Shown: piece after piece, positions 16,338 to 42,134 of the stretch
Layout of the letters: every line of letters begins with the position of its first letter
Numbering within the stretch: the stretch's first letter is position 1
From: a virus
IMG/VR virus record: IMGVR_UViG_3300012663_000801
Location: 1-64,000 of that record
Reading direction: 5' to 3' (one strand)
Length of the DNA stretch: 64,000 nucleotides
Translations under genes and position numbers: made by a program
Notes under the pieces: generated by a model
The model's input: the letters and a program-made list of their open reading frames with translations, nothing else
Told to the model about the DNA's origin: nothing
The model's database searches: none

Positions 16338-16415
16338 TAGGGTGATGGCAGAGCGGTAATGCTCCGATCCCTTCTCGCCCCGCCAAATAAAAACTAAAAT
16401 ACAATAACGTCCAAC

Positions 16416-16841
16416 ATGAAAGAATTCACAATCATCTGGGAAGACCGCTGGAAAACAGGTAGCCACTGGCATTGTTCAACTAAAAAATCTTTTGTTCGTG
16501 CCGAAAGCATTGATCATGTGATGGAGAGCAATTTTGGTGCAGTCGCAAGATTTATTTTTGAAGGTTTCGTATGCACTTTGGGAGAAACCTTTTCTGAAGA
16601 AGATGTCGAGACGATCATCGATAATACTGTCAAGGCACCTCAATTCGACCGTAAACGCCATGGTGGACTATTCGACCGAGGTAGTGCCGATGCTTATTAT
16701 GGTCGAGCAGCATCGCCTCATTGGTATCCTCTCGGGACTGGCAAGGGTGAACGTGTCGAGAATCTGACTGAAGAAGAGATTGCTGAATACCAAGCTGGTT
16801 ACGATGATCAGGTGTCCTCTGGAGAATTCAAGCAATACTGA
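16416..16841 (+). CDS. hypothetical phage protein
   Basis: repeat-led; C-terminal RHGGLFDRGSADAYYGR segment. Confidence 0.7.
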   Translation: MKEFTIIWEDRWKTGSHWHCSTKKSFVRAESIDHVMESNFGAVARFIFEGFVCTLGETFSEEDVETIIDNTVKAPQFDRKRHGGLFDRGSADAYYGRAASPHWYPLGTGKGERVENLTEEEIAEYQAGYDDQVSSGEFKQY

Positions 16842-16883
16842 GATTAAAAACTAGCCTACAATAACGCCAACAACATAAATCAA

Positions 16884-17303
16884 ATGGACGACAATAAATA
16901 CGCTCAATACATCGAAGCACAAAAAGCATGGAGTAAACTGGTTGATCTTCAACCGGGTGACAAGGTTAAGGTCTTGTATGCTGTTGAAGATCATAAAGAT
17001 GGCTGGAGCAATAGCTGGGTGAGTTCTATGACTGACGAAGTTGGTAAAGTGCTGACTGTTGTTCGTGTCGAAGGTGGTAGTGGTATCAGACTCAAGGATA
17101 GTAAAGATGGGTTGGGTCTTTCTTATCCATTCTTTGTTCTTCAAAAGGTGGAGAATCCTTTGCCTGAACCTATCAGGATTTCCGATAGCTACAAAGCGGA
17201 ATTCAAGAAAGATGGTAGTATCAAGGTCGGCTGTCAGGATATTTCTTACGACCTTCTGAAACAAATCTACGAAACCGCTACTAGCGTTATTTCTAACAAG
17301 TAA
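16884..17303 (+). CDS. hypothetical protein, IKVGCQ family 1
   Basis: shares KDG(S)IKVGCQ C-terminal module with next gene. Confidence 0.75.
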   Translation: MDDNKYAQYIEAQKAWSKLVDLQPGDKVKVLYAVEDHKDGWSNSWVSSMTDEVGKVLTVVRVEGGSGIRLKDSKDGLGLSYPFFVLQKVENPLPEPIRISDSYKAEFKKDGSIKVGCQDISYDLLKQIYETATSVISNK

Positions 17304-17321
17304 TCAAACACCACTACAAAC

Positions 17322-17891
17322 ATGAAAGATACAATCAAAATCGGTGATACTGTTGTCCGTCGAGTAAGTGATCGAGTCGATTGGTGGAACAATTCTTGTA
17401 ATAAACATAAATTGCCTGTGGATGGACATTATGTTGTCGTTGGATTTAGTGACAGCGGAGGTCTTAGACTACAAGGATTTCATAGTGATTATTCATTCAC
17501 GGAAACTTGTTTCGATGTGGTCGAACTTACACCTGAGCAAGAATACAAAGAAGCCAAGAAACTAATTGGCAAGACTGTCGTTGTTAAGAATGAACCTTCG
17601 GTTAAAATTAAAGTTACCAGTATTGTTTATCGTATGGGTGATGATGCCGATGATCTTTCATTTGCTTGCCAAGACTATCTCAAAAAACATGGTTATCTTA
17701 TTGCTGTGCGAGGTGGCTTATACAGTCGTCCATTCCTTGAGATTGAGGAAGTGACCTCTGATATCAACGTCAAACTCAACGATAACCACGATGCTATCGT
17801 CACTAAGGACGGTATCAAGGTTGGATGCCAAACATTCTCTCACGACGTCGTAGACAAGCTCAAGAGAGCAATCGAACAAATCAACAAGTAA
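17322..17891 (+). CDS. hypothetical protein, IKVGCQ family 2
   Basis: C-terminal module shared with upstream gene. Confidence 0.75.
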   Translation: MKDTIKIGDTVVRRVSDRVDWWNNSCNKHKLPVDGHYVVVGFSDSGGLRLQGFHSDYSFTETCFDVVELTPEQEYKEAKKLIGKTVVVKNEPSVKIKVTSIVYRMGDDADDLSFACQDYLKKHGYLIAVRGGLYSRPFLEIEEVTSDINVKLNDNHDAIVTKDGIKVGCQTFSHDVVDKLKRAIEQINK

Positions 17892-18211
17892 ATATGAAAA
17901 ATCCTCTCGGTCTATTTTTCTCCATCCTTTGGCTTCTCACTATGATTGGATCACTAGCGTTTAGCTGCTGGATTATCTATGTGATCTTCCATTTCGTAGG
18001 CAAATACTGGTAAAAACTAAAATACAATACGCATATGGCAAACAAGAATACACGACAGGCCCGCAAAGCAGGCTTCGCAAGCAAGGACGATCAGAACAAC
18101 AATGGCACCCGTATTTTCAAGGGTAAGGCTTGTGACACTGATTGGGATGCTCCCGAGAGCAGACACAGGAAGCGCAAGGACTATCGGCGCATCAAGCCTG
18201 AGTAAATAGCT

Positions 18212-18398
18212 TTTCGCTTCGGCAGTATCAAAACAATCCAGCAACTCCCTCTACTATATTTACTTAGCATGGAGACTGGTGGGATCGAGACATGGAGCCT
18301 TCGGGTGCGCGGAAAAAGTTAGTAATAACAGGCATTAATTCCATCATCCTGAAACTCGGATATTGAAAAGGTAGCGGACGAACCGTTCCGAAGCGAAA
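18212..18398 (+). ncRNA. candidate structured RNA (~187 nt)
   Basis: 11-bp terminal complement TTTCGCTTCGG/CCGAAGCGAAA enclosing an intergenic region. Confidence 0.4.
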
Positions 18399-18418
18399 TT
18401 AATTTTAAAATAATAACC

Positions 18419-18637
18419 ATGGATCTTGAAATTTACAGAGAAATTAAAATTTTCCCAGATACACATCATGGTTTCTCGATTGAGGATTTCCGTAAGGATG
18501 TGGGAGGACAAGGCATTACGATTGAGTCCTTTGATTTTGTCAAAGGTCATAAACAAAATGTCACTGGAATCTATACTGATAAAAAGACTGCTGTTGCAAT
18601 TGCAAAAGCTATTTTAGAATTGTGCGAAGATGTTTAA
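18419..18637 (+). CDS. hypothetical protein
   Basis: ORF in run. Confidence 0.6.
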   Translation: MDLEIYREIKIFPDTHHGFSIEDFRKDVGGQGITIESFDFVKGHKQNVTGIYTDKKTAVAIAKAILELCEDV

Positions 18638-18932
18638 ATTACCTTACATTATCTTAGGTCTTTTCCTATTCCTGATTGGAATGGCAATGTCATCGGGATT
18701 CTTTTCTTTGGGATTGGCTCTCATTGGTTGTTTCATTCTTTCGAGAATCATGGCATTGGATCACGGTGTTCCGGCTTTTTTCATCATCGGTATCGTTATT
18801 TTTGGATTCGGTTTTTTTATGCTGGCACCACTTCTACAAGAAATTGGGTTGGATAGGGGAACATCTAATATCTCACGACTGGTGTTTACCTTGGCTTCCG
18901 GTATCTTCACATGGTTATCAGTAGCAAAATAA
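18630..18932 (+). CDS. membrane protein
   Basis: 3-4 hydrophobic segments. Confidence 0.7.
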   Translation: MFKLPYIILGLFLFLIGMAMSSGFFSLGLALIGCFILSRIMALDHGVPAFFIIGIVIFGFGFFMLAPLLQEIGLDRGTSNISRLVFTLASGIFTWLSVAK

Positions 18933-18938
18933 AATAAT

Positions 18939-19427
18939 ATGCATAAAATATTCAATCCTATCAATTTACTAAATCAGGACGTTCGGATTTCTTATCACCC
19001 TGATGATTTCGGCGAAGATGCCAAAGTAATTGAAATCGAATCCAGAAATAATGAAAGAACTTTTGAGATCGTATTTTCGAATTATCCCGAGCTTGAAGAT
19101 GATGAAAGATTCATTTGGACAACGCAAGAACCATATGAAATCGTTGGCGATAAAGCAGTCTTTTCGGATATCGGGCACATGCGAAGAATCTACTTGCAAT
19201 GTAAAAAACTAGAATATACTGAAGAAGTAACAAGCGAAACAAATAATATGAAAACAACTGTTAAGGAATTGAGCGAAAAGCTGGGTGTTGATGTTGTCTA
19301 TGTGAATGGATTCATCCAAACGCTCATCAAGATTGGCAAGGCTGAAGTTATTGGCAAGACCGAAAGGCCCGCTGGTAGTCGAGGAAAGCCATCGAATATC
19401 TATCAGATTGCTGAAGGCATTCTGTGA
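18939..19427 (+). CDS. hypothetical protein; C-terminal HTH-like part may start separately at 19248
   Basis: internal repeat at ~19203; TVKELSEKLGV...RGKPSNIY. Confidence 0.6.
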   Translation: MHKIFNPINLLNQDVRISYHPDDFGEDAKVIEIESRNNERTFEIVFSNYPELEDDERFIWTTQEPYEIVGDKAVFSDIGHMRRIYLQCKKLEYTEEVTSETNNMKTTVKELSEKLGVDVVYVNGFIQTLIKIGKAEVIGKTERPAGSRGKPSNIYQIAEGIL

Positions 19428-19540
19428 GAGGGTTGCAGCATGGGCTTGGTCCGTCTCATGCTCTTGAACAGCGTCCAAGGATGTCCAAAATCCTAAAAGT
19501 CAACGGACCTCCAATTTAAAAACTAGGCTACCATCGTGCC

Positions 19541-19894
19541 ATGCTTAAAGAAACTTTATTTGAACTTTTCGGTGAACTTGATACGGTTCACGAATTGGAT
19601 GAATCTGGTTATGGTTACTATACAACCGACGATTTTATCATCTGTGTTAGTGAACGTCATGGCTTTTACCTTGTCTCTGTAGACTTGAGAGGTGTTTTCA
19701 ACAAGACCTCACAATGTCCCATTCACTTTGAAATCTCTTCCTATAAGGAACTTTCCAAGCGCAAGAAGAATCGAATTCGTGAAGCCACAAGGTTCCTTCT
19801 TGCCAATCGAAAAATTGCTGGAGAATTTTTCGGTGAAATGGATGGTTTCGATGACCTGAGTTCCAGTGCCCGAGATCAATTCTACTCCTATTAA
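19541..19894 (+). CDS. hypothetical protein
   Basis: repeat-bounded ORF. Confidence 0.7.
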   Translation: MLKETLFELFGELDTVHELDESGYGYYTTDDFIICVSERHGFYLVSVDLRGVFNKTSQCPIHFEISSYKELSKRKKNRIREATRFLLANRKIAGEFFGEMDGFDDLSSSARDQFYSY

Positions 19895-19915
19895 AAACTA
19901 AACAATAATCGGCCC

Positions 19916-20185
19916 ATGCAGAAACGCTACTACATGTTCATCCCCTTGGATATTGACAAAGACAAATCTTCACGCTTCGTCGTCGAGACTGATGGCATTC
20001 CTGAAAGGGATCTGTTCTTTGGCAAGGTCGTTGCAAGGAATCATAAAGCATATTACTACCTTGGACAGGAATCCTCCGATTGGTGCAATCCAATTGCCGA
20101 TCTGAGACATGGACATAAGCCATCTTTCATTCCAATCAATAAGGATGAAGTGGAGGAGAAGTTTGAGGAAGTTAATTTCATTTAA
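19916..20185 (+). CDS. hypothetical protein
   Basis: repeat-led ORF. Confidence 0.7.
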   Translation: MQKRYYMFIPLDIDKDKSSRFVVETDGIPERDLFFGKVVARNHKAYYYLGQESSDWCNPIADLRHGHKPSFIPINKDEVEEKFEEVNFI

Positions 20186-20191
20186 AAAATC

Positions 20192-20449
20192 ATGAAAAGA
20201 GAAGTCGCAGAAATGATTGTTGATCAACCTATTTTTGTTGAAGATGGTGATAATGTATATTTTCCTAAAAATGGAATGTGTTTTCATAAATCATTCTCGG
20301 AAAAATACAATGGCATGACCTTCATTCAAGCTAGGACTATTCTGCGGAAGTATTACACTCATGGTCAACAAGACAGTATCATCCATTATCTGAAAAAAAG
20401 TGGTGTTGTGAAAGCACCAATTAAAAACTACGCTACCATTCAGGCATGA
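20192..20449 (+). CDS. hypothetical protein
   Basis: ORF in run. Confidence 0.6.
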   Translation: MKREVAEMIVDQPIFVEDGDNVYFPKNGMCFHKSFSEKYNGMTFIQARTILRKYYTHGQQDSIIHYLKKSGVVKAPIKNYATIQA

Positions 20450-20564
20450 TCGCTTACGTGGAAAATGAATTCATCCTGAAGAATTCCACCGAGCGTCAAA
20501 AAATCGATTAAAAACTACGATACAATCGGGGCACACCACAAACCAACACAACTAAACAAAATAT

Positions 20565-21599
20565 ATGGCACACGAAATTGAAATCGGAACTGATCGCGTC
20601 ATCACCTTCGGAGACCGTGCATGGCACAAGCTCGACGAGAACCATCAGATCCCTCTCACAAGGGAGATCATCAAGCCTCTGTTCATTCCCTATCTGGATG
20701 GACAGGCTAACGTCAACATCGATGGAGTAGAAGTCCCGCTGGAAGGCTGGAAGACCATCGTTGCTGATCTTCGTGATATCGAAGACATTGAAGGCGATTT
20801 CCGCCCGGTGCATGTTGCATCTGACAAGTATGAAATCCTTCAGAATGAGGTGCTTTTCGATGCTCTTCAGGAATCTCTGAACGGTATCAATTACAAGATC
20901 GTTTCCGCTGGAACTCTGTCGGGTCTGAAGAACTTCTTCGTCTCTGTTGAATTCGATAACGATTCGAATATCAAGCTTCCTGATGGAAGTGAGTGCAAGG
21001 CATTCTTCTCTCTGTTCACCTCACACGATGGCACTAAGAATGCATCGTATTACGATACGACTCACCGGACTGTCTGTATGAACACCGTTCGTTCATCTTA
21101 TTCGTCACGGGGTAATCAGGGATTCAATATCGCTCACACCAAGAACGCCAGCGTCCGTATCACGAACATGGCACAGATTGTGAACAATACTCTCCTTGGT
21201 CGTCGTGCCTTCGAGGAAAAGATGGCGGAATTGTTCTCGGTCGAATGTGACCTGTCGAAGGCTGAACGCTTTGTTGCTGGCTTCTTGGCAGACAAGACCA
21301 AGGCTGAAGAGAAGCTCTCCACCCGCTCCTTCAATCAGATGAGTGAAATCGTGTCTCTGGCATGGAATGGTGCTGGTAATCGTGGCGGGAACATGTTCTA
21401 CCTTGCACAAGGTGCAACTGAGTATTGGACCCGTGGAAATGGCACTGGTGGCGCAAACAAGGATCTTGGGCGCAAGGCATTCTCCTCCGAATTCGGACTT
21501 GGAATGGACAACAAGTGCAATTTCCTCGCTGCTCTTAGCAATCCAGCACAACGCGACAAGCTTATCCAGCGGGGTGATCTGGTCCTTAGCAATAACTAA
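20565..21599 (+). CDS. DUF932-family phage/plasmid protein
   Basis: MAHEI..AWHKL, YEILQN, SHDG, RTVCMNT, HTKNA. Confidence 0.85.
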   Translation: MAHEIEIGTDRVITFGDRAWHKLDENHQIPLTREIIKPLFIPYLDGQANVNIDGVEVPLEGWKTIVADLRDIEDIEGDFRPVHVASDKYEILQNEVLFDALQESLNGINYKIVSAGTLSGLKNFFVSVEFDNDSNIKLPDGSECKAFFSLFTSHDGTKNASYYDTTHRTVCMNTVRSSYSSRGNQGFNIAHTKNASVRITNMAQIVNNTLLGRRAFEEKMAELFSVECDLSKAERFVAGFLADKTKAEEKLSTRSFNQMSEIVSLAWNGAGNRGGNMFYLAQGATEYWTRGNGTGGANKDLGRKAFSSEFGLGMDNKCNFLAALSNPAQRDKLIQRGDLVLSNN

Positions 21600-26679: not shown

Positions 26680-26853
26680 ATGATCGAAACGATTGACATC
26701 ACCCCGACTTGGGAATCATTGGTTCTGACCCTCGCCAGCCTTTATACTGATGGCACCACCTTTGAATCCCGAAAGATCGCAGAAGAGGAACTGTTGAGGA
26801 TGGCGAAGATCGCTGACATTCTGGTGGAAGAGAGGAAGGCACGAAAAAACTAA
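26680..26853 (+). CDS. 57-aa hypothetical protein
   Basis: MIETIDITPTW...; ends KN* inside repeat. Confidence 0.65.
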   Translation: MIETIDITPTWESLVLTLASLYTDGTTFESRKIAEEELLRMAKIADILVEERKARKN

Positions 26854-26866
26854 GGTATAATTCAAA

Positions 26867-26940
26867 CGTCCAGTAGCTCAGTTGGTTAGAGCGGGTTCTT
26901 TATAAGGGCCGGGTCAGGGGTTCGAGTCCCCTCTGGACAA
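26867..26940 (+). tRNA. tRNA-Ile(UAU)
   Basis: loop TTTATAA, canonical D and T arms, no encoded CCA. Confidence 0.8.
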
Positions 26941-26987
26941 CTTTCAAAATAAAATCACATCATGGGAACACTCTGAAAATAAAAAAT

Positions 26988-27725: not shown

Positions 27726-27820
27726 ATTAGTATTTAGTAGACACGGCAGTAAATACTAGAGCGTTTACCATTTAAAAAATAAAAACTAGAATATAATCGT
27801 AGCATAATAAAAAAACAAAC

Positions 27821-28325: not shown

Positions 28326-28808
28326 ATGAAAGAAATTCTACCATTCGAATTCAAGAATCCATATTTCTTCCCAATTGATGAGATTCGCAAGTCAATCAGG
28401 GATAATTATGAAAATGTTGTCAGCTTGGTCAAAGAGACAATATACTATTACAATTATGGCAATCGCTCAGTTGAAGGAACACACTGTAAGTATCAAAGCA
28501 ATACAGGTAATATGTGTGCCGTTGGTCGCTGTCTTACTGAGCAAGCTCTTAATGACTTCCATGATCATGAAGTAGCAAAGACATTCGCTATTATTTCTTT
28601 GCCCGAATTTATCACTGAAAAGTATAGCAGCTTTGATAGCATGTTCCAAGAAAAGTATCAGGGTATTCATGTGCAAGTGTGGAGCTTTATGCAAAGCTTA
28701 CACGATGAAGATATCAATTGGGATGAGAATGGTTTGAGTAGCGATGGTGAGCAGGAAATTCTCAATACTCTTGGAACCAAGATCCACAACGACGTTTTCG
28801 GGAAGTAA
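28326..28808 (+). CDS. MCAVGRCL family paralog 1
   Basis: C.Y..GNMCAVGRCL, Q.LHD..NW..NGL. Confidence 0.8.
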   Translation: MKEILPFEFKNPYFFPIDEIRKSIRDNYENVVSLVKETIYYYNYGNRSVEGTHCKYQSNTGNMCAVGRCLTEQALNDFHDHEVAKTFAIISLPEFITEKYSSFDSMFQEKYQGIHVQVWSFMQSLHDEDINWDENGLSSDGEQEILNTLGTKIHNDVFGK

Positions 28809-28831
28809 AAACTACAATACAATACTGGCAT

Positions 28832-29326
28832 ATGGAATACATCGAACCATTCACAGACTTCAATGACATTTCCCATTTGACTGAAAAAGTTATTGGTGAA
28901 ACTCGTCAGTCAATCAAAGATAATCATGACAAGATTGTTGCCTTACTCAAGGAACTGACAAGTCATTACAATACCGGAAATCGCTCAATTGAAGGTATCT
29001 CATGTCGGTATAAAAATGATGCTGGTAATATGTGCGCTGTTGGGCGTTGTCTTACCGAGGAAGCTCTTAATGACTTCAACATCTACGAACGCACTGAAAG
29101 GACATTCGGTATTACTGTTTTACCAACTGTTATTACTGACAAGTATAGCGACTTTGATAGCATGTTCCAAGAAAAGTATCAGGGTATCCATGAACAGGTG
29201 TGGGGCTTTATGCAAGGCTTGCATGATGATGAAAATTGGGATGAGAATGGTTTGAATGATGAAGGGGCGATGGCCATTCTCAATACCCTCGGGACCAAGA
29301 TCCACAACGACGTTTTCGGAAAATAA
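28832..29326 (+). CDS. MCAVGRCL family paralog 2
   Basis: tandem duplicate with identical C-terminus. Confidence 0.8.
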   Translation: MEYIEPFTDFNDISHLTEKVIGETRQSIKDNHDKIVALLKELTSHYNTGNRSIEGISCRYKNDAGNMCAVGRCLTEEALNDFNIYERTERTFGITVLPTVITDKYSDFDSMFQEKYQGIHEQVWGFMQGLHDDENWDENGLNDEGAMAILNTLGTKIHNDVFGK

Positions 29327-29329
29327 AAT

Positions 29330-30094
29330 ATGATCGCTTACAAAGCCACATACAATTTCAAGTGCCGTAATCAAGAGTATAAAGTCGGAAAGACTTATAC
29401 TTCTGATCGTATGGAAATCTGCGAATACGGATTCCATTTCTGTCAAAAGATGGAAAATGTCCTCAATTATTATTCATTTTCTTCGGATCTCATTCTATTG
29501 GAAGTCGAGATCCTTGGTAATGTGCATACTGAAGGCGACAAGTCTGTTACGGATAAGCTCAAGGTCATCCGTGTCATTCCTGAAGAGGAATACACCGATA
29601 GTATGAAATCTCAAATTACCATCTATGAATATGATGATAGGAATAATCTGATTTCTGAAAAGTATCCAAATGGTAACAAGTGGACTTATGAATATGATGA
29701 ACGGAATAACAAGATTTCCAAGACGTATCCAGATGGTGACAAGTGGACCTATGAATATGATGAGAGGGATAATCGTATTTCCGAGACACATTCAAATGGT
29801 GAAAAGTATACCTATGAATATGATGATAGGAATAATAGGATTTCCGAAACGTATCCAGATGGTGACAAATACAGCTATGAATATGATGATAGGAATAATA
29901 GGATTTCTGAAACGTATCCAGATGGTAAAAAATGCACCTATGAATATGATGATAGGAATAACAATATTTCCACGACGTATCCAAATGGTGGCAAATACAT
30001 CTATGAATATGATGAACGGAATAATCTGATTTCCGAAACGTATCCAGATGGTAAAAAATGCACCTTTGAATATGCGGTGATCACTGAGGAATAA
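29330..30094 (+). CDS. YD-like repeat protein, paralog 2 (about seven 63-bp units)
   Basis: YEYDDRNN.ISETYPDG repeats. Confidence 0.85.
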   Translation: MIAYKATYNFKCRNQEYKVGKTYTSDRMEICEYGFHFCQKMENVLNYYSFSSDLILLEVEILGNVHTEGDKSVTDKLKVIRVIPEEEYTDSMKSQITIYEYDDRNNLISEKYPNGNKWTYEYDERNNKISKTYPDGDKWTYEYDERDNRISETHSNGEKYTYEYDDRNNRISETYPDGDKYSYEYDDRNNRISETYPDGKKCTYEYDDRNNNISTTYPNGGKYIYEYDERNNLISETYPDGKKCTFEYAVITEE

Positions 30095-30472: not shown

Positions 30473-31174
30473 ATGATCGCTTACAAAGCCACCTACAATT
30501 TCAAGTGCCGTAATCAGGAATACAAAGTCGGAAAGACTTATACTTCTGATCGTATGGAAATCTGCGAATACGGATTTCATTTCTGTCAAAAGATGGAAGA
30601 CGTTCTCAATTACTATAAAAATTCTTCGGATTTCATTCTATTGGAAGTTGAAATTCTTGGTAAGATCGAAACGGAAGGAGATAAATCTGTTACTGATAAA
30701 CTGAAAGTTCTGCGCATCATTCCCTTTGAGGAATACACCGATAGCATGAAGTCTCGATTTCCCATCTTTGAATACGATGAGAGGGATAATTGTATTTCCA
30801 TGACGTATCCAAGTGGTGAAAAACACACCTATGAATATGATGATAGGAATAACAAGATTTCCTTGACGTATTCAAATGGTGAAAAGAATACCTATGAATA
30901 TGATGAACGGAATAACAAGATTTCCGCAACGTATACAAATGGTAACAAGTGGACCTATGAATATGATGAACGGAATAACATGATTTCCGCGACACAGCTA
31001 AATGGTTACAAATGCACCTATGAATATGATGATAGGAATAACAAGATTTCCGAGACACTTCCAGATGGTAACAAGTGGACTTATGAATACGATGAGAGGG
31101 ATAATCGTATTTCCATGACGTATCCAAGTGGTAAAAAATGCACCTATGAATATGCCACGATCACCGAGGAATAA
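30473..31174 (+). CDS. YD-like repeat protein, paralog 3 (about six 63-bp units)
   Basis: as above. Confidence 0.85.
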   Translation: MIAYKATYNFKCRNQEYKVGKTYTSDRMEICEYGFHFCQKMEDVLNYYKNSSDFILLEVEILGKIETEGDKSVTDKLKVLRIIPFEEYTDSMKSRFPIFEYDERDNCISMTYPSGEKHTYEYDDRNNKISLTYSNGEKNTYEYDERNNKISATYTNGNKWTYEYDERNNMISATQLNGYKCTYEYDDRNNKISETLPDGNKWTYEYDERDNRISMTYPSGKKCTYEYATITEE

Positions 31175-31744: not shown

Positions 31745-31999
31745 ATGCCTTCTTACATCTACTCAAGTCCGAAAGGAGTCACGATCTATTATTCAGACGA
31801 AAAAAAGAAAATCATACATCGTGAAGATGGTCCCGCGATGATCCTTTCGGACGGAAGTAAGGAATGGCGCATCAATAACAAGCTCCACCGTGAAGATGGA
31901 CCTGCTTATGATTATGCGAACGGACGCAGAGGCTGGTATTTACATGGTATTGAATTGACAGAAGAAGAACACTCCAAGAGAACAACAAATAAAAACTAA
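31745..31999 (+). CDS. HREDGPA-repeat protein 1
   Basis: two HREDGPA repeats. Confidence 0.8.
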   Translation: MPSYIYSSPKGVTIYYSDEKKKIIHREDGPAMILSDGSKEWRINNKLHREDGPAYDYANGRRGWYLHGIELTEEEHSKRTTNKN

Positions 32000-32279: not shown

Positions 32280-32606
32280 ATGACTCCGCAATACATTCAC
32301 ATTGACAAAGATGGTGACAAGTTCTATTACAAGGACATGCAAATGACAATCCGCCATCGTGAAGACGGACCTGCTGTCAAACTTACCGATGGTTACGAGG
32401 GATGGTATTTCAATGATATGTGTCACCGTGAAGATGGTCCCGCTATTGTGTATCCAAATGGTCAAAAGTATTGGTATCTCAATGGTGTGCAGCATACCGA
32501 AGAGGCGCATGCACGACGCACTGCAAAAGTCGTGGAACTCACACTGGATCAGATCGCAGAGAAATTTGGAATCTCAGTGGAGAAGCTGAAGATCGTTAAA
32601 AACTAA
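32280..32606 (+). CDS. HREDGPA-repeat protein 2
   Basis: two repeats plus ELTLDQIAEKFG tail. Confidence 0.8.
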   Translation: MTPQYIHIDKDGDKFYYKDMQMTIRHREDGPAVKLTDGYEGWYFNDMCHREDGPAIVYPNGQKYWYLNGVQHTEEAHARRTAKVVELTLDQIAEKFGISVEKLKIVKN

Positions 32607-34764: not shown

Positions 34765-35003
34765 GATAAAAACTACACCAAAATACCGACAAAAAGAAAC
34801 AACAAAACAAGAAAGCCTGCCGCAAATGAATTACCTCGGATGGAAGATTTCTTACTTTCCAATTGGCTCGCAAGTCTGGAAAGCGTCACGCTTTGGAGTT
34901 GACCTATGTGCCAATTCTAAAGAATTGCTGATGGCAATGATTGCCAGCCGCAAGTAATTTTCTGCTTGACTCACTCTTTTTAACTCTTCAAAATATCACT
35001 ACT

Positions 35004-35330
35004 ATGCCCGAAACTCCCATAATCATCAGAGTAAATAATGATCTTGATCTGCGCAATCCTATCCATGCGAAAGCGTATCTAAAAGCCGCCAATCATTTCT
35101 TGTCTGGCTGGCCCGAAGAATGGGACGCCGAAACTCTTTGCCTTGCTCTTCTTGCTGAAGAAGAAGACGACGAAGAAAACCTTGCTAATCGAAAGAAGGT
35201 CTTCCCTTGGGAGGCAATCAAAAACTCAAGCTGTTTCGAGACACAAGGCGAGTATCGTTTTCTTGAAGAAATCATCTGTAATCTGGCAGAAGATTTCATT
35301 GATTTTCTAAACGAAACTGATCCGAGTTAA
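35004..35330 (+). CDS. hypothetical acidic protein
   Basis: ATG 35004; ends in repeat. Confidence 0.65.
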   Translation: MPETPIIIRVNNDLDLRNPIHAKAYLKAANHFLSGWPEEWDAETLCLALLAEEEDDEENLANRKKVFPWEAIKNSSCFETQGEYRFLEEIICNLAEDFIDFLNETDPS

Positions 35331-35351
35331 AAACTACACTAAAATACTGCC

Positions 35352-35594
35352 ATGCTCGACATCACCATTGACCCGAAGGAAATCAGAGCCAGATATCACG
35401 CCGACGACACCGGACGCGGATGGTTGTATTTCTCAGTCCCAAATGGATGGGAGGATGTGGAAAAGGTTCACAAGAAAGTCCTGACCTACGACGGGCGCAA
35501 GTTTCTCTTCAGCGGGTGGAACTCGGATCGAAACGACTGCTTCTTCAGGGAGGAACTGAAGGGAGGCCCGATGGTGGTCGCCCGCTTCCAATAA
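35352..35594 (+). CDS. hypothetical protein
   Basis: repeat-bounded ORF. Confidence 0.7.
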   Translation: MLDITIDPKEIRARYHADDTGRGWLYFSVPNGWEDVEKVHKKVLTYDGRKFLFSGWNSDRNDCFFREELKGGPMVVARFQ

Positions 35595-35890
35595 AAACTA
35601 CACCAAAATACTGCCATGAGAACAAACGAATTGTTTGAAACGCTGCAAAATCTGCTCATTCTCTCCCTGATACTGTTCACCATCTTAGTGGGAATGGCAA
35701 TCGGCACCCTTGTGACTGCGATCATCGGGTCTCTTGCCCAATAAAAACTACACCAAAATCGCTGCATGCAATTCCTACTCACGCTCTGCGTCACATTCAT
35801 TGCCATTGGAACTCGAAGTCTGATCATGTATGTGTTCGCTGCCATCCTCTGGTATCTCGTCGTTGTTAAAAACTAAACCAAAATACTGCC

Positions 35891-36184
35891 ATGTCGAAAC
35901 CATACATGACCATCAATTCCGAAGGTAACACGCTCTACTTCAAGGACAAGGGGATGACCATTCCCCACCGGGAAGACGGTCCCGCTGTTGAGTGGCCCAA
36001 TGGGCACAAGGTTTGGTATGTCAATGGCAAGCGTCATCGTGAAGATGGCCCTGCGATTGAACACGCCAACGGTGGGAAGTATTGGTATCAGAACGATGTC
36101 CTCCACCGTGAAGATGGCCCTGCGATTGAACACGCCAATGGGAACAAAGCATGGTTCCTGAATGGCCGCGAAGTTAAAAACTAA
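35891..36184 (+). CDS. HREDGPA-repeat protein 3
   Basis: three repeats; ends KN*. Confidence 0.8.
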   Translation: MSKPYMTINSEGNTLYFKDKGMTIPHREDGPAVEWPNGHKVWYVNGKRHREDGPAIEHANGGKYWYQNDVLHREDGPAIEHANGNKAWFLNGREVKN

Positions 36185-36198
36185 ACCAAAATACTGCC

Positions 36199-36411
36199 AT
36201 GTCCAAACCGAAGTTCAAATCATTCCTTCTCACCAAGACTCATGTGACCGCAATGGTGAAAGCCATGAAGCAAGCGGGCCTGCGCGTCGTGGAAGACAAG
36301 TCCGCTGGCACTGTCCAAGCGTTTTATGGTGAGCACGAAGTTTATGCAGCAATCGAGAAGGGGCACAATCAGCCTTGGATCGTGCGCCATGTCGAGAACC
36401 TGTTCGACTGA
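36199..36411 (+). CDS. hypothetical protein
   Basis: repeat-led ORF. Confidence 0.7.
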   Translation: MSKPKFKSFLLTKTHVTAMVKAMKQAGLRVVEDKSAGTVQAFYGEHEVYAAIEKGHNQPWIVRHVENLFD

Positions 36412-36441
36412 TCAACACGGGGGAAGCGCATCCTACACGCT
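36412..36441 (+). repeat. 30-nt pseudoknot-like repeat, copy 1 (others 38233-38262, 41035-41064)
   Basis: TCAACA(C/A)GGGGGAAGCGCATCC(T/G)ACACGCT in three intergenic gaps. Confidence 0.8.
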
Positions 36442-36465
36442 TAAAAACTTCAGCAAAATACTGCC

Positions 36466-36648
36466 ATGACCAAGAAGCACTTCGAGTTTATCGCCTCCAC
36501 CATCGAGTCCATGCCATCCTTTTCCGCCACTCTGAGGGCACAGAAGCTCTCCTGCGCGAACACCTTCGCCGATGCCTTCGCCAAGGAGTTCCCGCGATTT
36601 GATCGGGACAAGTTCCTGCAAGCCTGCGGTGTCTATTACTTTCAATGA
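36466..36648 (+). CDS. hypothetical phage protein
   Basis: MTKKHFEFIA...PRFDRDKFLQACG. Confidence 0.75.
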   Translation: MTKKHFEFIASTIESMPSFSATLRAQKLSCANTFADAFAKEFPRFDRDKFLQACGVYYFQ

Positions 36649-36728
36649 GTGCATGGCAAAGTCCCCTCTCTCTGGTGGTTCGGAGAGAGGGGCAACCCTT
36701 TTAAAAACTACAGCAAAATCATGGCACC

Positions 36729-37076
36729 ATGAAAGTCCGTGTTTACTTCAACCTGCACAAGAAACTCCTTTCGATTCAAACGAAAGTGAATGGCGCGTGG
36801 AAGGTGATCAGCCACCGCCAGAGCGTTAGCCTGTCCGATGTCACCTTCAAGGTGTCGGAGCGTGGTCGCCAGCGGGTGATCAAGAACAAGCGGAAGAACG
36901 TCCACGCCTACATCTGCGGCACCCTCAACGATGAACTGGTGAACGAGAGCGGGATGGACCCGATCATCTACAACCCCTACAAGTTCGAGCGTTTCTTCAA
37001 TGGTGAGCGATACGTGGACACCGCTGAAAGGGTCTTCATCGATGGTCGCAAGGTTTACGCCGCGAACGCCCAATAA
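36729..37076 (+). CDS. hypothetical phage protein
   Basis: VRVYFNLHKK, KRKNVHAY, YNPYK. Confidence 0.8.
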   Translation: MKVRVYFNLHKKLLSIQTKVNGAWKVISHRQSVSLSDVTFKVSERGRQRVIKNKRKNVHAYICGTLNDELVNESGMDPIIYNPYKFERFFNGERYVDTAERVFIDGRKVYAANAQ

Positions 37077-37259
37077 AAACTACAGCAAAATACTGACATG
37101 CGCCAACGCTACTTCCTCTGGAACCTGCCACTCATCGACGGTGGCGAAATGATCATCATCCACGAAATCACCCGGAACAACAACAAGGTGACCGGGTTCA
37201 TCAACCACCGCTTCACCTTCCCGAAGGACCAATAAAAACTACACCAAAATACCCCTGCC

Positions 37260-37493
37260 ATGAAAAACAAATTCCGCAACCAAGACGGCACGATCACCTC
37301 TTATTCATTCGCCTGTGGATACGTTGAAAGATACGGAAACTGGGATATTCCACGGGCCACAATTTCCCGCGAGGCCAATGGCTACCATGTCAAAGGGTTC
37401 GACAAGGACGGGAAACACTTCTGGGAAATCGTGGACAAGGTGAAGGACGCCAGAGCGATTGCCCGCAAGCAAGGGGGGAAGCTGAACAAATAA
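37260..37493 (+). CDS. hypothetical protein
   Basis: repeat-bounded ORF. Confidence 0.7.
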   Translation: MKNKFRNQDGTITSYSFACGYVERYGNWDIPRATISREANGYHVKGFDKDGKHFWEIVDKVKDARAIARKQGGKLNK

Positions 37494-37517
37494 AAACTAC
37501 AGGAGAATAGCTGCACT

Positions 37518-37733
37518 ATGGAACACTTTCTAACTGAACAGCAAAAACATATCATCTATCAGGAATATCGCAGTTATGATTGCGCAATGAGCGATCCATG
37601 GCGCAATGACTTTTCTGATGATGGGCAAGCGGATGATGAATGGAGACGGGAAAACATGCTGGAAAATATCCGCGAGCAAATGCCCGAAATTCCCCTCGAA
37701 ATGATTGAGGACGAAATTGACAGAATTTCTTGA
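37518..37733 (+). CDS. hypothetical acidic protein
   Basis: repeat-bounded ORF. Confidence 0.65.
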   Translation: MEHFLTEQQKHIIYQEYRSYDCAMSDPWRNDFSDDGQADDEWRRENMLENIREQMPEIPLEMIEDEIDRIS

Positions 37734-37947
37734 AATCTTCTGATAAAAACTACAGCAAAATAACGCTGCCATGCAGAACAACATGCTATTCACTGTCAGC
37801 GGGGAAGTCCTCGCCTATGCCGTCACAAGGGATGCGGCAATCGCCATCTCGAATTTCGCTCGTCGCCCCGTTCGCTGGGGGGATGAATTGATCGGAGGAG
37901 AATACGTCGGATGCGTCGGATAAAAACTACAGTAAAATAACGCTGCC

Positions 37948-38229
37948 ATGAAGACCAAGAAAGAAATCAAGCTCAAGGACGGTTCCACTCTTCCCAAGGG
38001 ACTCCGCGTCACGTTCATCGAGGACAAGCCCACCCGATGCCTTGTCCACTCGCCTGCTCATCCGGCACCGCTGCAAGTGCGGATCACCAGCGCGTTTCAC
38101 GCCCCATCATACGAGAGGATGGAAGGCTGGGGCTGCATCTGCAAGACTCCCACCGGGCAGACTGTCGAGCCTGACGGCTACGGGGAAGACGGAAGCCCTT
38201 CGTGGCTGATCGTTCTCGGTCTGATCTGA
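37948..38229 (+). CDS. hypothetical phage protein
   Basis: VEPDG...SWL..LGLI C-terminus. Confidence 0.75.
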   Translation: MKTKKEIKLKDGSTLPKGLRVTFIEDKPTRCLVHSPAHPAPLQVRITSAFHAPSYERMEGWGCICKTPTGQTVEPDGYGEDGSPSWLIVLGLI

Positions 38230-38414
38230 TACTCAACACGGGGGAAGCGCATCCGACACGCTTAAAAACTACAGTAAACTCCCGCCATGCCTGACCTCAC
38301 CAACCTCAACGACGCAGACCTGCAAGACCTCATCGACTTCCTCGCAGGTGTGACAAAATGACGCACCTGACCGAAACCCGCCTGTAAAAACTACACTAAA
38401 CTTTTGCCACGACC

Positions 38415-38630
38415 ATGAAAATCAACTGCATCGACATCGAATGGGACACAGACGGAGACGAAGAAATCCTTGCCACTCTTCCGACCGAAGTGATCGTTGA
38501 CCTCAACGAAATCGAAGGCTTTGAGGATGAAGATGTTACAGAGGAAAACTCTTCCGATATTGCGGACTATCTTTCGGACGAATACGGGTTCTGCATCTTC
38601 AGCTTCAACTATCAAACGCTCAATTCCTGA
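38415..38630 (+). CDS. highly acidic small protein (possible DNA mimic)
   Basis: IEWDTDGDEE..LP, IADYLSDEYGFC; very D/E rich. Confidence 0.7.
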   Translation: MKINCIDIEWDTDGDEEILATLPTEVIVDLNEIEGFEDEDVTEENSSDIADYLSDEYGFCIFSFNYQTLNS

Positions 38631-38669
38631 CCACCCGCTTTTAAAAACTTCAGCAAAATCGCTACCGAC

Positions 38670-38951
38670 ATGAGACTCATCACCAAGAAAATCCACCTCG
38701 CCTTCTTCGCAGGCCGCGCCCTCACCCTCGGCAACACCCGCACAGACGGCAACAGCGTCTGGCTCCACGGCAACAAGATCGTGGAGATGCGCGAGGACGG
38801 CGTTTACGCTACCCTCGCAGGCTGGAACACTCCCACGACTCGGGAGCGCGTGAACGGCATCACGGGTGCCCGGTTCAGCCAGAAAAATTTCACCCCGCAC
38901 TTGGACGGGAAGCCAATCGACGCAAACGAATGGCACAAGGTTCTAGGCTGA
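38670..38951 (+). CDS. hypothetical phage protein
   Basis: LHGNKI, GWNTPTTRERVN. Confidence 0.75.
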   Translation: MRLITKKIHLAFFAGRALTLGNTRTDGNSVWLHGNKIVEMREDGVYATLAGWNTPTTRERVNGITGARFSQKNFTPHLDGKPIDANEWHKVLG

Positions 38952-39033
38952 AGTCATGGCAAAAGTCCTCCCTCTCTGGTGGTTCGGAGAGGGAGGCATC
39001 TCTTTTAAAAACTTGAGTAAGATCCCTACCGAC

Positions 39034-39306
39034 ATGAACGACACGCTCGCTACCCTGATCCGCTCCATCCCGCTCATCACCCGTTTCGAGGAGAACGGTG
39101 TGATTCGGGAATATCCCGCTCGCTTCCACTTTGTGGAAGCAGAGGTCAACCCGGCCTTCGGACCAGTCCAAGAACACCTCGCTCTGGTGGACGAAAGCGG
39201 TGGCGACCCCGCCCTGCTCTTCGATGCTAGCACCATCAAAACCAACGGCGACTGGTTCACCTTCGAGGACTCGCTCCACGGCACGGTCGAGTTCAAGCCA
39301 GCCTAA
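39034..39306 (+). CDS. hypothetical protein
   Basis: start moved to repeat-adjacent ATG 39034. Confidence 0.65.
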   Translation: MNDTLATLIRSIPLITRFEENGVIREYPARFHFVEAEVNPAFGPVQEHLALVDESGGDPALLFDASTIKTNGDWFTFEDSLHGTVEFKPA

Positions 39307-39312
39307 CAATCC

Positions 39313-39347
39313 AGCCCCCAGTGTTCACCTGAGCACTGGGGGCTTTT
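39313..39347 (+). terminator. repeated long-stem terminator family (also 39916-39951, 40601-40636, 41691-41722, 42076-42121)
   Basis: GCCCCC(A/G)GTGTTCA...(T/C)GGGGGC with T-tract; A-T/G-C covariation. Confidence 0.8.
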
Positions 39348-39380
39348 CTCTTTTAAAAACTTCACCAAAATAGCTGCGCC

Positions 39381-39602
39381 ATGATTCCTACCACTTACTA
39401 CTGCCCGATCCGCTCGAACACTTTCGAGGTCCAAATCATTGAGGTGAAGTCCCACTGGGCATGTGCAGCTTTTGCACGCTTCCGCTGCCTGATCGGTGTG
39501 TGGAACTTCAACTGCACCTCGTTCATCGACATTGCCCAAGGCAATGGCATGACCGAGAAAGAGGCTTTCGACGCTGCCGTTAAAGACGCACAGGGAGTCT
39601 GA
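39381..39602 (+). CDS. hypothetical protein
   Basis: repeat-led ORF. Confidence 0.65.
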   Translation: MIPTTYYCPIRSNTFEVQIIEVKSHWACAAFARFRCLIGVWNFNCTSFIDIAQGNGMTEKEAFDAAVKDAQGV

Positions 39603-39641
39603 TCACCCCGCTTTTAAAAACTTCACCAAAATAGCTGCACC

Positions 39642-39908
39642 ATGACAACGCTCATTACCGGAAACACCTACCCCGTCCGCGACCAAATCAAAGCCCTCGG
39701 TGGTCGCTGGAATGCACCACGTAAGGGCTGGGAAGTCCCCAACGACAAGGCCGACGAAGCCCGCGCCATCGTGGCGGATGCACCCGTCAACTACCGCTCG
39801 CGCTCCCGCTACGTGTCCGACACGTTCAAGACCAGCGGCGGCACGTTCTACCGCAACCGCAACGGACGATGCGAGGATGCACCCTGCTGCGGCTGCTGCA
39901 CCTTCTGA
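39642..39908 (+). CDS. hypothetical protein with Cys-rich tail
   Basis: GNTYPVRDQIKALGGRWN; GRCEDAPCCGCC. Confidence 0.75.
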   Translation: MTTLITGNTYPVRDQIKALGGRWNAPRKGWEVPNDKADEARAIVADAPVNYRSRSRYVSDTFKTSGGTFYRNRNGRCEDAPCCGCCTF

Positions 39909-40245
39909 TTCAATCGCCCCCAGTGTTCACCTGAGCACTGGGGGCTTTTTTCATTTAAAAACTTCGACAAAATAGCTGCGCCATGAAGCCCACCCTACAC
40001 GAAACCCACAAAGGAGGTGCCCAATGATTCGCGCCTTCGATTCAAGGGGTCGCGAAGTGTTCCTGCGTCCGGGTCGAATCCTTCCAGAGGGAACGATCAC
40101 CCAGCGCGGGAATGATTTCCAGACTCTGGAAACTCCGGTGGTTTACCGGAAAAGTCGAGTCTGGAACACGCTGACCCAATCGTGGGACGAATCGGAAGAT
40201 CTGATCCCAATTGAGAAATAAAAACTTGAGTAAGATCCTGCTGCC

Positions 40246-40593
40246 ATGAGCACCACCACCACCATCGTCACCAAGCAGTCCCTCCTCGAAATGCTCACCG
40301 CCTCCCGCGAGCGTCAAGCTCAGGTTGTCGGTCGCGCCCTCGTCGCTCTCTTCCTTCGCCAGACGGAGGATGAGAAGGACGCCAACAAAACGAACCACGA
40401 CAACGATGTCGGGTTCCAGCACTCGGACGCCAAGAGGGGCAGCATCACCGCCAAGTATTTCCTGAAGCACCGCACGCTTCAGGACTGGCAGATCGAGCCT
40501 TGGCTTGCCCCACAGGGTGCCAAGGGCTATCCTCGGATTGCCAAGTATTCGCGCCAGCTGAACGAAATCGCCCTCGAAAAGCGCAAGGGCTGA
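40246..40593 (+). CDS. hypothetical phage protein
   Basis: RQTEDEK..T...NDVGF..DA, KYSRQL. Confidence 0.8.
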   Translation: MSTTTTIVTKQSLLEMLTASRERQAQVVGRALVALFLRQTEDEKDANKTNHDNDVGFQHSDAKRGSITAKYFLKHRTLQDWQIEPWLAPQGAKGYPRIAKYSRQLNEIALEKRKG

Positions 40594-40667
40594 TTCAATC
40601 GCCCCCGGTGTTCAAACGGACACCGGGGGCTTTTTTCATTTAAAAACTTCGCCAAAATACCCCTGCC

Positions 40668-41033
40668 ATGAAAACATACCAAGTTCGCTACAACGGAAAG
40701 CAGACCACAGCCCTCTGGATCGCGGAGGGCTGGATCATCGACGGTGCCCTCGTCCCTACCGGGGCAGCGGCAATCCTCAATCCCTACGTCACCCGCGCCC
40801 AGATCTGGGAGTGGTATGGCGAAGAGGAACACGTTGGTGACCCCGCCTTCGGTCGCTACAAGGCCAAGGGTGGGCAAGACTTCATCGTTCACCTGACCAC
40901 TGAGCAGGCATACGATGAGGAAGCGGTCCTCGCGAAGCTCAACGAGCGGCTGAACACGAACGGGAAATGGACCCGGTTCGAGTTCAAGGGTGAACTCGAA
41001 TACTACTTCGAGCCAACGGTGGTGGAACTGTGA
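40668..41033 (+). CDS. hypothetical protein
   Basis: repeat-led ORF. Confidence 0.7.
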   Translation: MKTYQVRYNGKQTTALWIAEGWIIDGALVPTGAAAILNPYVTRAQIWEWYGEEEHVGDPAFGRYKAKGGQDFIVHLTTEQAYDEEAVLAKLNERLNTNGKWTRFEFKGELEYYFEPTVVEL

Positions 41034-41091
41034 ATCAACAAGGGGGAAGCGCATCCTACACGCTTAAAAACTTCGCCAAAATAGCTACGCC

Positions 41092-41316
41092 ATGATCGAC
41101 CACATCACCACTGGCCCTCTCGCTGGGCACTTCACCCTCAATGGGTCCACTGACTTCGCTGGAGATGTCCTCCAGTTGTTCCGGGATGGCGTGAAAGCCA
41201 CCCCAAAAGCCCGCGTCCTGCTTTCTAAGTGGGCGAAGGAAGCCGATGCCCAAGCGGCAGCCAATGAGAAGGCATGGGACGAATTCAACGCCCATTACCC
41301 GTTTGGCGTTTATTAA
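41092..41316 (+). CDS. hypothetical protein
   Basis: repeat-bounded ORF. Confidence 0.7.
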   Translation: MIDHITTGPLAGHFTLNGSTDFAGDVLQLFRDGVKATPKARVLLSKWAKEADAQAAANEKAWDEFNAHYPFGVY

Positions 41317-41755
41317 AAACTTCGCCAAAATAGCTACGCCATGAACATCATCATCCTTGCCATCACAATCGCCTTCGTCGCCCCTGCCCTCGCCACCCGT
41401 GCGGCTGGGTCCAGCATCGTGGACTCCATCACCGCAGGGGTCGCAGGCGTCGGCATCGGCGTCCTTCTCTACACCGCTGCCGTGCTGGCAGCAGCCTTCG
41501 GGCACGTTACCGCTCTGTAAAAACTTGGGTAAACTCCTGCCATGCCTGACAACCTCACCGCCGCCGAGCTTGACGAGCTTATCGCCAAGCTCGCCCCCGT
41601 GACGCTCACCGCTTCCGCCATCGACCCCGCCCTCTTCGGACCAACAGCCCCCAGCGGGCTGCGTCTCGTCAGCGAAGCCTGATTCAATCCAGCCCCCGGT
41701 GTTCACCCAAGCACCGGGGGCTTCCTTTTAAAAACTTGGGTAAACTGTTACTACC

Positions 41756-42070
41756 ATGAACCTGATCAACCTCACGCCCCACGCCATCAACGAAGTCACA
41801 ACCGGGAGCACATTCGCTCCATCGGGCACTGTCGCCCGAGTGTCCACCAGCCTCGCCCCCCTTGGCGAGGTCAACGGAATCCCCTTGTTCTCAAGGGCTT
41901 TCGGAGAGGTCATCGGCCTCCCAGCCCCTGCCGAGGGTGTCCTGCTCATCGTCTCGGCCCTCGTGGCTGATGCCAGCCCTGACAGGCTGGATCTCGTCAG
42001 CCCCGGCGAATTGGTCAGGGATGACAAGGGCCAGCCCGTGGGCTGCAAGGGCTTTGTCCGCAAAGCCTGA
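41756..42070 (+). CDS. hypothetical phage protein
   Basis: INLTPHAI, GLPAP.EGV..IVS..VA, VRD..G..VGC. Confidence 0.8.
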   Translation: MNLINLTPHAINEVTTGSTFAPSGTVARVSTSLAPLGEVNGIPLFSRAFGEVIGLPAPAEGVLLIVSALVADASPDRLDLVSPGELVRDDKGQPVGCKGFVRKA

Positions 42071-42134
42071 CTCTCAGCCCCCGGTGTTCACCTGAACGGT
42101 GGACGCCGGGGGCTTTTTTTTGGCTTTCGTTTTT

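Follow-up and report, generated by a model that had tools for sequence, protein, structure and literature searches.

Candidate promoters fused to start codons: a dense repeat array in the hyperplastic region of an uncultured, distantly T4-like phage

This study asks why, in a stretch of viral DNA between positions 16,388 and 42,121, dozens of small genes should each be preceded by the same short repeat, and why that repeat should end at the start codon. The stretch belongs to IMG/VR virus record IMGVR_UViG_3300012663_000801, a linear contig of 96,954 bp (G000), of which the first 64 kb form the window (W) analysed here. An original prediction, made from the letters alone, described an array of one-gene cassettes with polarity, in which the repeat serves both as promoter and as recombination handle, and named an early region with many promoters as the simpler alternative. 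That alternative has become the core of the explanation favoured here, combined with a plasticity of the kind known from promoter-early stem-loop (PeSL) cassettes of T4-type phages. With a probability of about 0.7, the repeat is the standard non-late promoter of the phage, transcribing each small gene as its own leaderless mRNA, and the array evolves in a PeSL-like manner by turnover of whole units. It is best read as an array of promoters in a T4-type hyperplastic region, with mRNAs predicted to be leaderless, and in this sense as an unusual variant of T4-type shuffling cassettes and not as a new capture system.

The repeat has the layout TAAAAACT-N4-YAnAAT-N5-C-ATG. Copies with the core [T/A]AAAAACT number 76, all on the + strand and together spanning 1,322 to 44,424, and 63 of them make up the dense array at 16,388 to 42,121 (+ strand), where they front 59 open reading frames (ORFs) of 21–344 aa at about one copy per 417 bp. 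The early impression of a repeat ending at the ATG of dozens of small genes was therefore sound; the span first given for it holds for the dense part, but the repeat is not confined there, since copies run from 1,322 to 44,398 and also front long conserved genes and tRNA genes. Over the whole contig, the strict pattern TAAAAACTNNNNNANNAT has 64 matches on the + strand and none on the - strand (reversed control, 0 and 1), and the bare core AAAAACT has 79 and 9, respectively, 77 of the + copies lying before 44.4 kb. When the 76 copies are aligned on the first T, T1 is present in 73 and A2–A6, C7 and T8 in all 76; a hexamer follows at positions 13–18 (Y, A14 in 75/76, a, A, A, T18 in 75/76), then C24 (63/76), and position 25 is the A of the ATG. 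Relative to the ATG, this places the box at -24 to -17, the hexamer at -12 to -7, a C at -1 and the A of the start codon at the predicted +1. From the first T to the ATG the distance is 24 nt in most copies (motif position 25 in 45 of the 67 ORF-bearing units) and 27–28 nt in copies at 36.7–42 kb. Upstream of motif position -1 there is no conservation among the 76 copies, and so no -35 element. A typical copy, TAAAAACTACACCAAAATACTGCCATG at 35,592–35,618 (+ strand), carries the -10-like hexamer CAAAAT, and its TAA is the stop codon of the ORF upstream. Such double use is frequent, because the genes are packed end to end: the upstream stop is the TAA at motif positions 1–3 in 25 copies and the TAA or TAG at positions 8–10 in 7 (AAA-AAC-TAA, giving proteins that end in ...KN*), among them all six ...KN* endings noticed at the outset, and in 43 of the 76 copies it lies inside the motif or no more than 12 nt before it.

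Read as a promoter, the repeat would comprise the box T-AAAAAC-T, a -10-type hexamer YAnAAT and a C(-1)/A(+1) start dinucleotide, without a -35, the +1 A being the A of the start codon or, in the GC-rich block described below, lying about 3 nt before the start codon. The geometry of hexamer and dinucleotide is that of a bacterial promoter starting transcription on AUG, and a promoter fused to the start codon would explain why the repeat ends at the ATG. With +1 at or next to the ATG, each small gene probably has its own leaderless mRNA, the start sites being predictions from the sequence. The -10 hexamer lies 7 nt upstream of the start, within the 6–8 nt expected of leaderless promoters, and there is no Shine–Dalgarno sequence; 4-mers resembling one are found upstream of only 5 of 127 ORFs against 10.3 expected, and so are rarer than background genome-wide. 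The late genes (42,318–64,000 and the contig from 64 to 97 kb) instead have a T4-type box, (C)TAAATAATAnn, before the ATG, with TAAATA exactly 5 nt upstream in 22 of 28 cases; late mRNAs are likewise predicted to be leaderless, and the whole phage appears to fuse its promoters to start codons. There is one exception to the leaderless rule: at 20,422–20,565 two repeat copies stand 87 nt apart, the second 56 nt from the ATG of a conserved DUF932 gene, and the long leader here is retained in two related genomes, G006 and G001.

Some copies do not front an ORF. The copy AAAAAACTAAGGTATAAT precedes a tRNA-Ile(TAT) gene (26,844–26,941, + strand) that begins at 26,867, exactly where the ATG sits in other copies; the order is TATAAT, 6 nt, then the tRNA. 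Since the tRNA begins at the predicted +1, its primary transcript may need no 5' processing. The copy at 27,780 precedes a tRNA-Leu, and those at 43,853 and 44,398 precede a block of tRNA genes. Strong intrinsic terminators stand directly upstream of about 8–10 of the 63 array copies, their T-run merging into the box.

The rest of the contig identifies the kind of virus involved. PHROG matches beyond 64 kb include a gp23-type major head protein (phrog_138, E 4.6e-79), a portal (phrog_213), a head–tail adaptor, a tail-sheath stabiliser and a helicase. Among the 2574 T4-like phage records matched by the head protein, the best, all of them cyanophages (gp23), reach no more than 31–33% identity. 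Given the structural PHROGs and this low identity, the contig is judged to be an uncultured, distantly T4-like (T4-type) myovirus; head, portal, sheath stabiliser, helicase and TAAATA late box all place the array in a T4-type genome, as is the case for the hosts of PeSL cassettes. The completeness of the IMG/VR record is estimated at about 71%, and the window is best explained as the early/middle, hyperplastic half of the phage genome. Relatives were retrieved through the head protein and through one array gene, a scan of viral contigs with the full repeat pattern having given only single, chance-level matches per contig. Three of them (G001, G002 and G006; 198–207 kb) are classed as having direct terminal repeats. 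The head proteins of G001, G002 and G003 are 85%, 75% and 72% identical to that of the contig, respectively; G006 is the closest complete genome and G001 the next, and six further arrays were drawn from the set L129–L139. Megablast of 30.0–42.2 kb against cultured phage records gave no match, and the best candidate for a strain-level relative in metagenome contigs had only about 75% aa identity for the probe gene. As for clues to the host, psbA and WhiB were both absent from five related genomes.

The promoter arrangement is a property of the clade. Box copies on one strand number 81 in G001 and 65 in G006, and the six further arrays are equally dense (e.g., 40 copies in 9.6 kb). G003 is without TAAAAACT; instead, AAAACCG is found there 39 times, always on the same strand and with few exceptions inside TAATTAAAACCGAAnTAnAAT. 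These copies lie in 60 kb (60–120 kb, L124–L126, reverse strand), have the flank TAATTAAAACCGAA and the same -10/ATG geometry, and are followed by an ATG at N6 spacing in 26 of 39 cases. The two lineage boxes, TAAAAACT and TAATTAAAACCG, have AAAAC in common at -22 to -18, and the generic pattern AAAAC-N5-YAnAAT-N6-ATG occurs 31–37 times per genome, on one strand, in G000, G001, G003 and G006 (reversed controls, 0). In G002 the count for this pattern is zero, and neither box type is found. Within the window, neighbouring copies are more alike than distant ones, as had been noticed at the outset: over the 16 nt after the core, genomic and Hamming distances correlate (Spearman rho 0.41, permutation p<0.0005), and 5.35 positions differ between adjacent copies, compared with 7.21 over all pairs. 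Subtypes follow position (ACTAGAATACAAT, ACTACACCAAAAT, ACTTCGCCAAAAT), the right-hand part at 36.7–42.1 kb having mostly the 27–28-nt box-to-ATG spacing and an ACTT(C/G) variant of the repeat, and the subtype zones of the window and G006 coincide at syntenic positions. In that same part, the promoters have a common 9–10-nt segment, AGCTGC(A/G)CC, between the -10 hexamer and the ATG, which is kept at orthologous units in three genomes (W, G006 and G001) while the segment between box and hexamer is genome-specific. A different kind of site is seen at 34,966–34,994, where TTGACT-N17-CAAAAT, a -35-bearing, sigma-70-like arrangement, is followed after 9 nt by the ATG of an ORF ending at 35,330; this unit (34,966–35,010), the only one there without the box, hints at a second promoter class.

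That the small ORFs are real genes, under purifying selection, follows from the 32 ortholog pairs with G006, all of which have pN/pS <0.5 (pooled 0.24, with pS 0.50). They form a cluster of small variable ORFs, 59 of them promoter-fronted within 26 kb, as expected of a hyperplastic region. Of these 59, 41 have homologs in G006 and 16 in G001, and only the units at 35,352, 37,771 and 37,948 are widely shared across the six further arrays, so that gene content is not conserved among relatives. DNA alignment to G006 is broadly colinear at about 80% identity but interrupted by many indels and replacements, and nucleotide views show homology beginning at the first box bases or at the ATG and stopping at the stop codon. 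Rearrangements are spread all along the array. Units 16,388 and 16,845 are located far away in G006, and the stretch at 38,642–41,316 (+ strand) is permuted without inversion, the units at 38,642, 39,006, 39,615, 40,219, 40,641 and 41,065 corresponding to G006rc 68,897, 71,015, 70,404, 69,558, 69,979 and 70,757, respectively. Paralogs occur in tandem as whole units (25,468/25,808; 28,326/28,832; 31,745/32,280/35,891; 29,330/30,473, with 1,346), also in line with the original prediction. One of them is the pair at 28,326–29,326 (+ strand), of 160 and 164 aa and 66% aa identity, each being one promoter-to-promoter unit and present as a single copy in G006. These comparisons support the view that relatives gain, lose, duplicate and reorder whole promoter-to-promoter units, and that what they share is architecture, not genes.

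The composition of the array is also structured. GC content climbs from 0.40 to 0.58 along it and falls to 0.35 after 42.1 kb, confirming the rise that had been suspected, and GC3 per gene climbs from about 0.45 to 0.65–0.85. In the GC-rich distal block (35,328–42,121, + strand) GC3 is mostly 0.6–0.85, and GC at codon positions 1 and 2 also rises, up to about 0.5, which indicates a shift of the whole composition and not just of codon choice. It had been proposed that the newest genes sit at this end. The DNA alignable to G006 does fall from 0.78–0.79 on the left to 0.63 and 0.59 on the right, but turnover is only mildly higher distally, and the distal block is not simply the newest part because the rise and abrupt fall recur in all eight related arrays examined (including G006, G001 and those from L129–L139). 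Furthermore, orthologs of distal-block genes have equally high GC3 in G006 (0.6–0.8) and moderate GC3 in G001 (0.5–0.6), the three most widely shared units sit within the block, and units unique to this genome take on the GC3 of their position (0.77–0.79 distally, 0.45–0.51 in mid-array). The gradient tracks position, not age. In G003, whose lineage has the other box, the block was not seen. The GC-rich genes have only distant homologs (37–47% identity), in phages whose hosts differ widely, and these do not allow a donor to be named.

In the distal part, several promoters are joined to terminators in composites that resemble PeSL elements. The first copy of one family, at 39,313–39,384, has a strong hairpin (-28.7 kcal/mol) whose T-run merges into the box, and 71 nt of it are 94% identical to 39,916–39,986. 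The second (39,905–39,986) belongs to the same family and shares 70 nt at 88.6% identity with 40,590–40,659; a third (40,590–40,670) was recognised by terminator scan, folding and identity to the other copies, and a fourth (41,691–41,758) by terminator scan and folding. Another family, GGGGGAAGCGCATCCTACACGCTT plus box, is found at 36,411–36,468, 38,233–38,289 and 41,034–41,094, with 50 nt at 94% and 38 nt at 95–97% identity between copies, and its type is present at several places in G006. The remaining family, a CCCCTCTCTCTGGTGGTTCGGAGAGAGGGG hairpin plus box, lies at 36,655–36,731 and 38,962–39,036 (-25.3 and -26.6 kcal/mol; 52 nt at 88%). All of these are on the + strand; within the array the three families share 50–71 nt at 88–94% identity, and they recur in G006. 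The array is closed by a strong terminator at 42,076–42,122 (+ strand), a 17-bp stem followed by T8, which is conserved in G006. Next to it is a non-coding boundary element (42,121–42,310) with three AAAAACTA cores in alternating orientation and no -10 hexamer, then G-runs, GCCATGGC and an A/T-rich stretch. Conservation of this element extends to G006, L129, L131 and L133, in which the cores make up a perfect palindrome, CTAGTTTTTAAAAACTAG; the element might serve to bind a factor, as an origin or as a boundary site.

How the units are exchanged is a separate matter from what the repeat does in expression. In the mechanism that we consider most likely, by analogy with PeSL cassettes, a UvsX/RecA-type system would carry out homologous recombination between near-identical promoters, especially the terminator-plus-promoter composites of 50–71 nt, and whole promoter-to-promoter units would be gained, lost, duplicated in tandem and transposed as in other T4-type hyperplastic regions. 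A RecA/UvsX-family gene is present in G001 and G006. Synteny-break edges do coincide with repeats: 31 of 61 lie within 5 nt of one, where 5.5 would be expected and 5000 randomisations never gave more than 14. The coincidence alone does not show, here or in similar cases, that a repeat drives recombination. Because the repeat fills nearly all of the intergenic DNA, selection for intact genes predicts the same breakpoint pattern.

Several results weigh against the promoter-and-turnover reading or parts of it. Breakpoints are found at 39 of 62 repeat junctions and at 7 of 14 repeat-less ones (Fisher p=0.38), a control of low power with only 14 junctions of the latter kind, so that these counts do not separate a recombination role of the repeat from a gene-junction effect; of the dual function first proposed, the promoter anatomy is supported and the handle remains a proposal. 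Promoters of orthologs are no more alike than those of neighbours in the same genome (1.81 versus 1.72 differences in 5 positions for G006, 2.6 versus 1.8 for G001). These contrasts point toward concerted evolution of the promoters, which was set aside as they are not significant, and the similarities are compatible with homogenisation and equally with selection for positional promoter classes. Even the closest relative found is already at pS ~0.5, and no recent, cleanly resolvable recombination event was seen. The promoter itself has no -35, and its box stands at the place of no standard sigma-70 element. In one rival account the repeats are promoters only, with turnover by illegitimate or homing-type events anywhere, of which only cuts at gene boundaries survive, the coincidence with repeats then being a by-product of dense packing. 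Such an account is possible but doubtful. It draws on the equal breakage of repeat-less junctions, on the near-complete occupation of intergenic space by the repeat and on the long conserved genes fronted by it outside the plastic zone. Besides the low power of the junction control, it has to face changes in unit order without inversion, tandem duplicates that span exactly one unit, identical 50–71-nt composites that recur within and between genomes, and the experimental demonstration of promoter-repeat recombination in RB49 and phi1 (PMC2839356). A dedicated integron-like capture system, with a site-specific recombinase and polar insertion at the right end, is a far weaker contender, and can hardly be credited. 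One-gene cassettes bounded by a repeat, a composition shifting along the array, the rightward drop in alignable DNA and the last three units being unique to this genome would all suit it. Yet the tyrosine recombinase PF00589 is absent from G000, G001 and G006 (all 14 control genomes were positive), serine recombinases gave no significant match in G000 or the two complete relatives G001 and G006 (positive controls were detected), and the repeat is a direct, one-strand element without internal symmetry and without an attC-type imperfect inverted repeat or palindrome. The GC-rich end goes back to the ancestor of the clade, the most widely shared units lie within it, and rearrangements are not limited to it. 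An integron-like system was rejected on these grounds and, with no dedicated machinery found, the notion of a gene-capture system with polarity lacks support in the form first given.

The promoter function has rivals too. The repeat might work in RNA instead, either as a site of processing or as an A-rich element that initiates translation within long polycistronic early transcripts. A genome poor in Shine–Dalgarno sequences could need another initiation signal, and the repeat is A-rich and at a fixed distance from the ATG. However, copies front tRNA genes, strong terminators abut several copies, the repeat is strictly one-stranded, late genes carry the T4-type TAAATA box in the equivalent place, and the conserved positions agree with a -10 hexamer, its second base being A and its sixth T, and with a C/A start dinucleotide that follows 7 nt downstream; a promoter is favoured for these reasons, and an RNA-level signal seems very unlikely. 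A subtler variant, which we regard as conceivable but tentative, accepts the promoter but makes the box the site of a phage-encoded activator, as in MotA-like middle promoters, with subtypes that are selected classes of timing or strength and that would explain the similarity of neighbours without recombination. Invariance of the box within a genome, variation between lineages in a conserved architecture, and the inverted or palindromic box copies, lacking a -10 hexamer, in the conserved non-coding stretch where the array ends together hint at a phage-encoded factor that binds it. The lack of a -35 element, the syntenic subtype zones of the window and G006, and the -35-bearing site at 34,966–34,994, which suggests a separate promoter type, fit as well. 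On the other side, no candidate factor was found: the MotA C-terminal domain (PF09158, MotCF) gave no match in G000, G001 and G006, in a search in which control genomes gave none either, and sigma-70 region 2 gave only weak matches, in ORFs of ~150 aa resembling gp55-type late factors. The hosts of the two lineages may also simply differ. One could speculate further that the AAAAAC box binds a factor which also binds the boundary palindrome, that subtypes and the three composite families steer like-with-like recombination, and that GC-rich cassettes collect beside the boundary, making the array a compositionally sorted, self-organising gene-capture region. We think this improbable as a whole; if true, it would account for a GC gradient that is kept throughout the clade although nearly all genes have turned over.

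Among known systems, the closest to the array, as a set of promoters that turns over unit by unit, are the PeSL cassettes of the T4-type phages RB49/phi1, T4/PST and KVP40/nt-1 (Arbiol et al. 2010, PMC2839356; Comeau et al. 2014, PMC4122927), for which homologous exchange between promoter repeats, producing mini-circles, was shown experimentally (PMC2839356). Both are found in T4-type phages, in hyperplastic regions of small, mostly unknown genes; both have a conserved intergenic promoter repeat that is partly joined to a stem-loop or terminator; whole-ORF indels, replacements and displacements between relatives coincide with the repeats in the PeSL phages, and break edges cluster at them here too, with repeat-less junctions breaking about as often; in both, homologous rather than site-specific recombination is implied. 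They differ in that a PeSL consists of a stem-loop and a sigma-70 promoter (-35/N17/-10), then a Shine–Dalgarno sequence and ATG, whereas the box described here stands at -24 to -17 next to the -10 hexamer, with no Shine–Dalgarno sequence or leader, the ATG at the predicted start and an upstream stop codon inside the repeat. A strong stem-loop accompanies only the minority of copies noted above, and the array is far denser, extending over 26 kb.

The promoter itself has parallels elsewhere. In Deinococcus–Thermus (PMC12340547) and mycobacteria (PMC4633059), leaderless genes are reported in which a -10 element immediately precedes the ORF, and the likeness lies in a -10 hexamer about 7 nt before the start codon and a transcript predicted to begin at AUG without a ribosome-binding site. 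Those genes belong to the host and are read by host sigma factors; here a whole phage genome is concerned, with early/middle and late classes, and promoters of the non-late class have in addition an invariant box. T4 middle promoters, with a MotA box at -30 and a sigma-70 -10 element, used with AsiA (PMC2988021), resemble the present ones in their -10 hexamer, in lacking a usable -35 and in a conserved box upstream, possibly read here by a phage factor as well. The box of the present array differs in sequence and position, not being centred at -30, and the MotA search was negative as given above, without a positive control. Integron arrays resemble it in being one-strand arrays of single-gene units bounded by a repeat, and differ in that here there is no integrase, no attC structure and no demonstrated insertion polarity, and each unit has its own promoter in place of one shared Pc promoter.

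A literature search found no paper on a phage with this box or with a genome-wide fusion of promoter and ATG. What is new here is the -35-less box promoter and its lineage-specific switch, the control at the level of junctions, the GC-rich distal block found across the clade, and the conserved element at the array boundary. Should the predictions be right, early/middle and late genes alike would be expressed, in a whole lineage of large uncultured T4-like phages, from promoters fused to start codons, without ribosome-binding sites. Leaderless expression, if true, constrains what the ribosomes of the hosts must accept, and would give annotators a simple rule for placing the start codons of hundreds of tiny phage genes correctly. 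The array also represents a very dense set of promoter-bounded gene modules, with 63 copies in 26 kb and documented unit-wise turnover, and extends the PeSL idea to a promoter type without -35, Shine–Dalgarno sequence or, mostly, stem-loop.

Few products of the array are recognisable; these are a phage lysozyme, RHS-repeat/DUF7666 proteins, an L5 gp82-like and a Kyanoviridae gp96-like protein, a DUF932 protein and a KaiC-like ATPase. The gene at 41,756–42,070, present in the window only, has 380 homologs, one of them 91% identical and on a 2.3-kb contig; a search for related loci with its single protein found none. The remaining paralog sets (+ strand) include proteins with HREDGPA repeats, encoded at 31,745–31,999 and 32,280–32,606, which are split by an unrelated unit, and at 35,891–36,184; they have no Pfam match at E<=0.001. 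The RHS-repeat/DUF7666 paralogs are encoded at 29,330–30,094 and 30,473–31,174, flanking one small unit, and, for the third, at 1,346–2,170 (+ strand), and all three consist of tandem repeats of 63 bp (21 aa).

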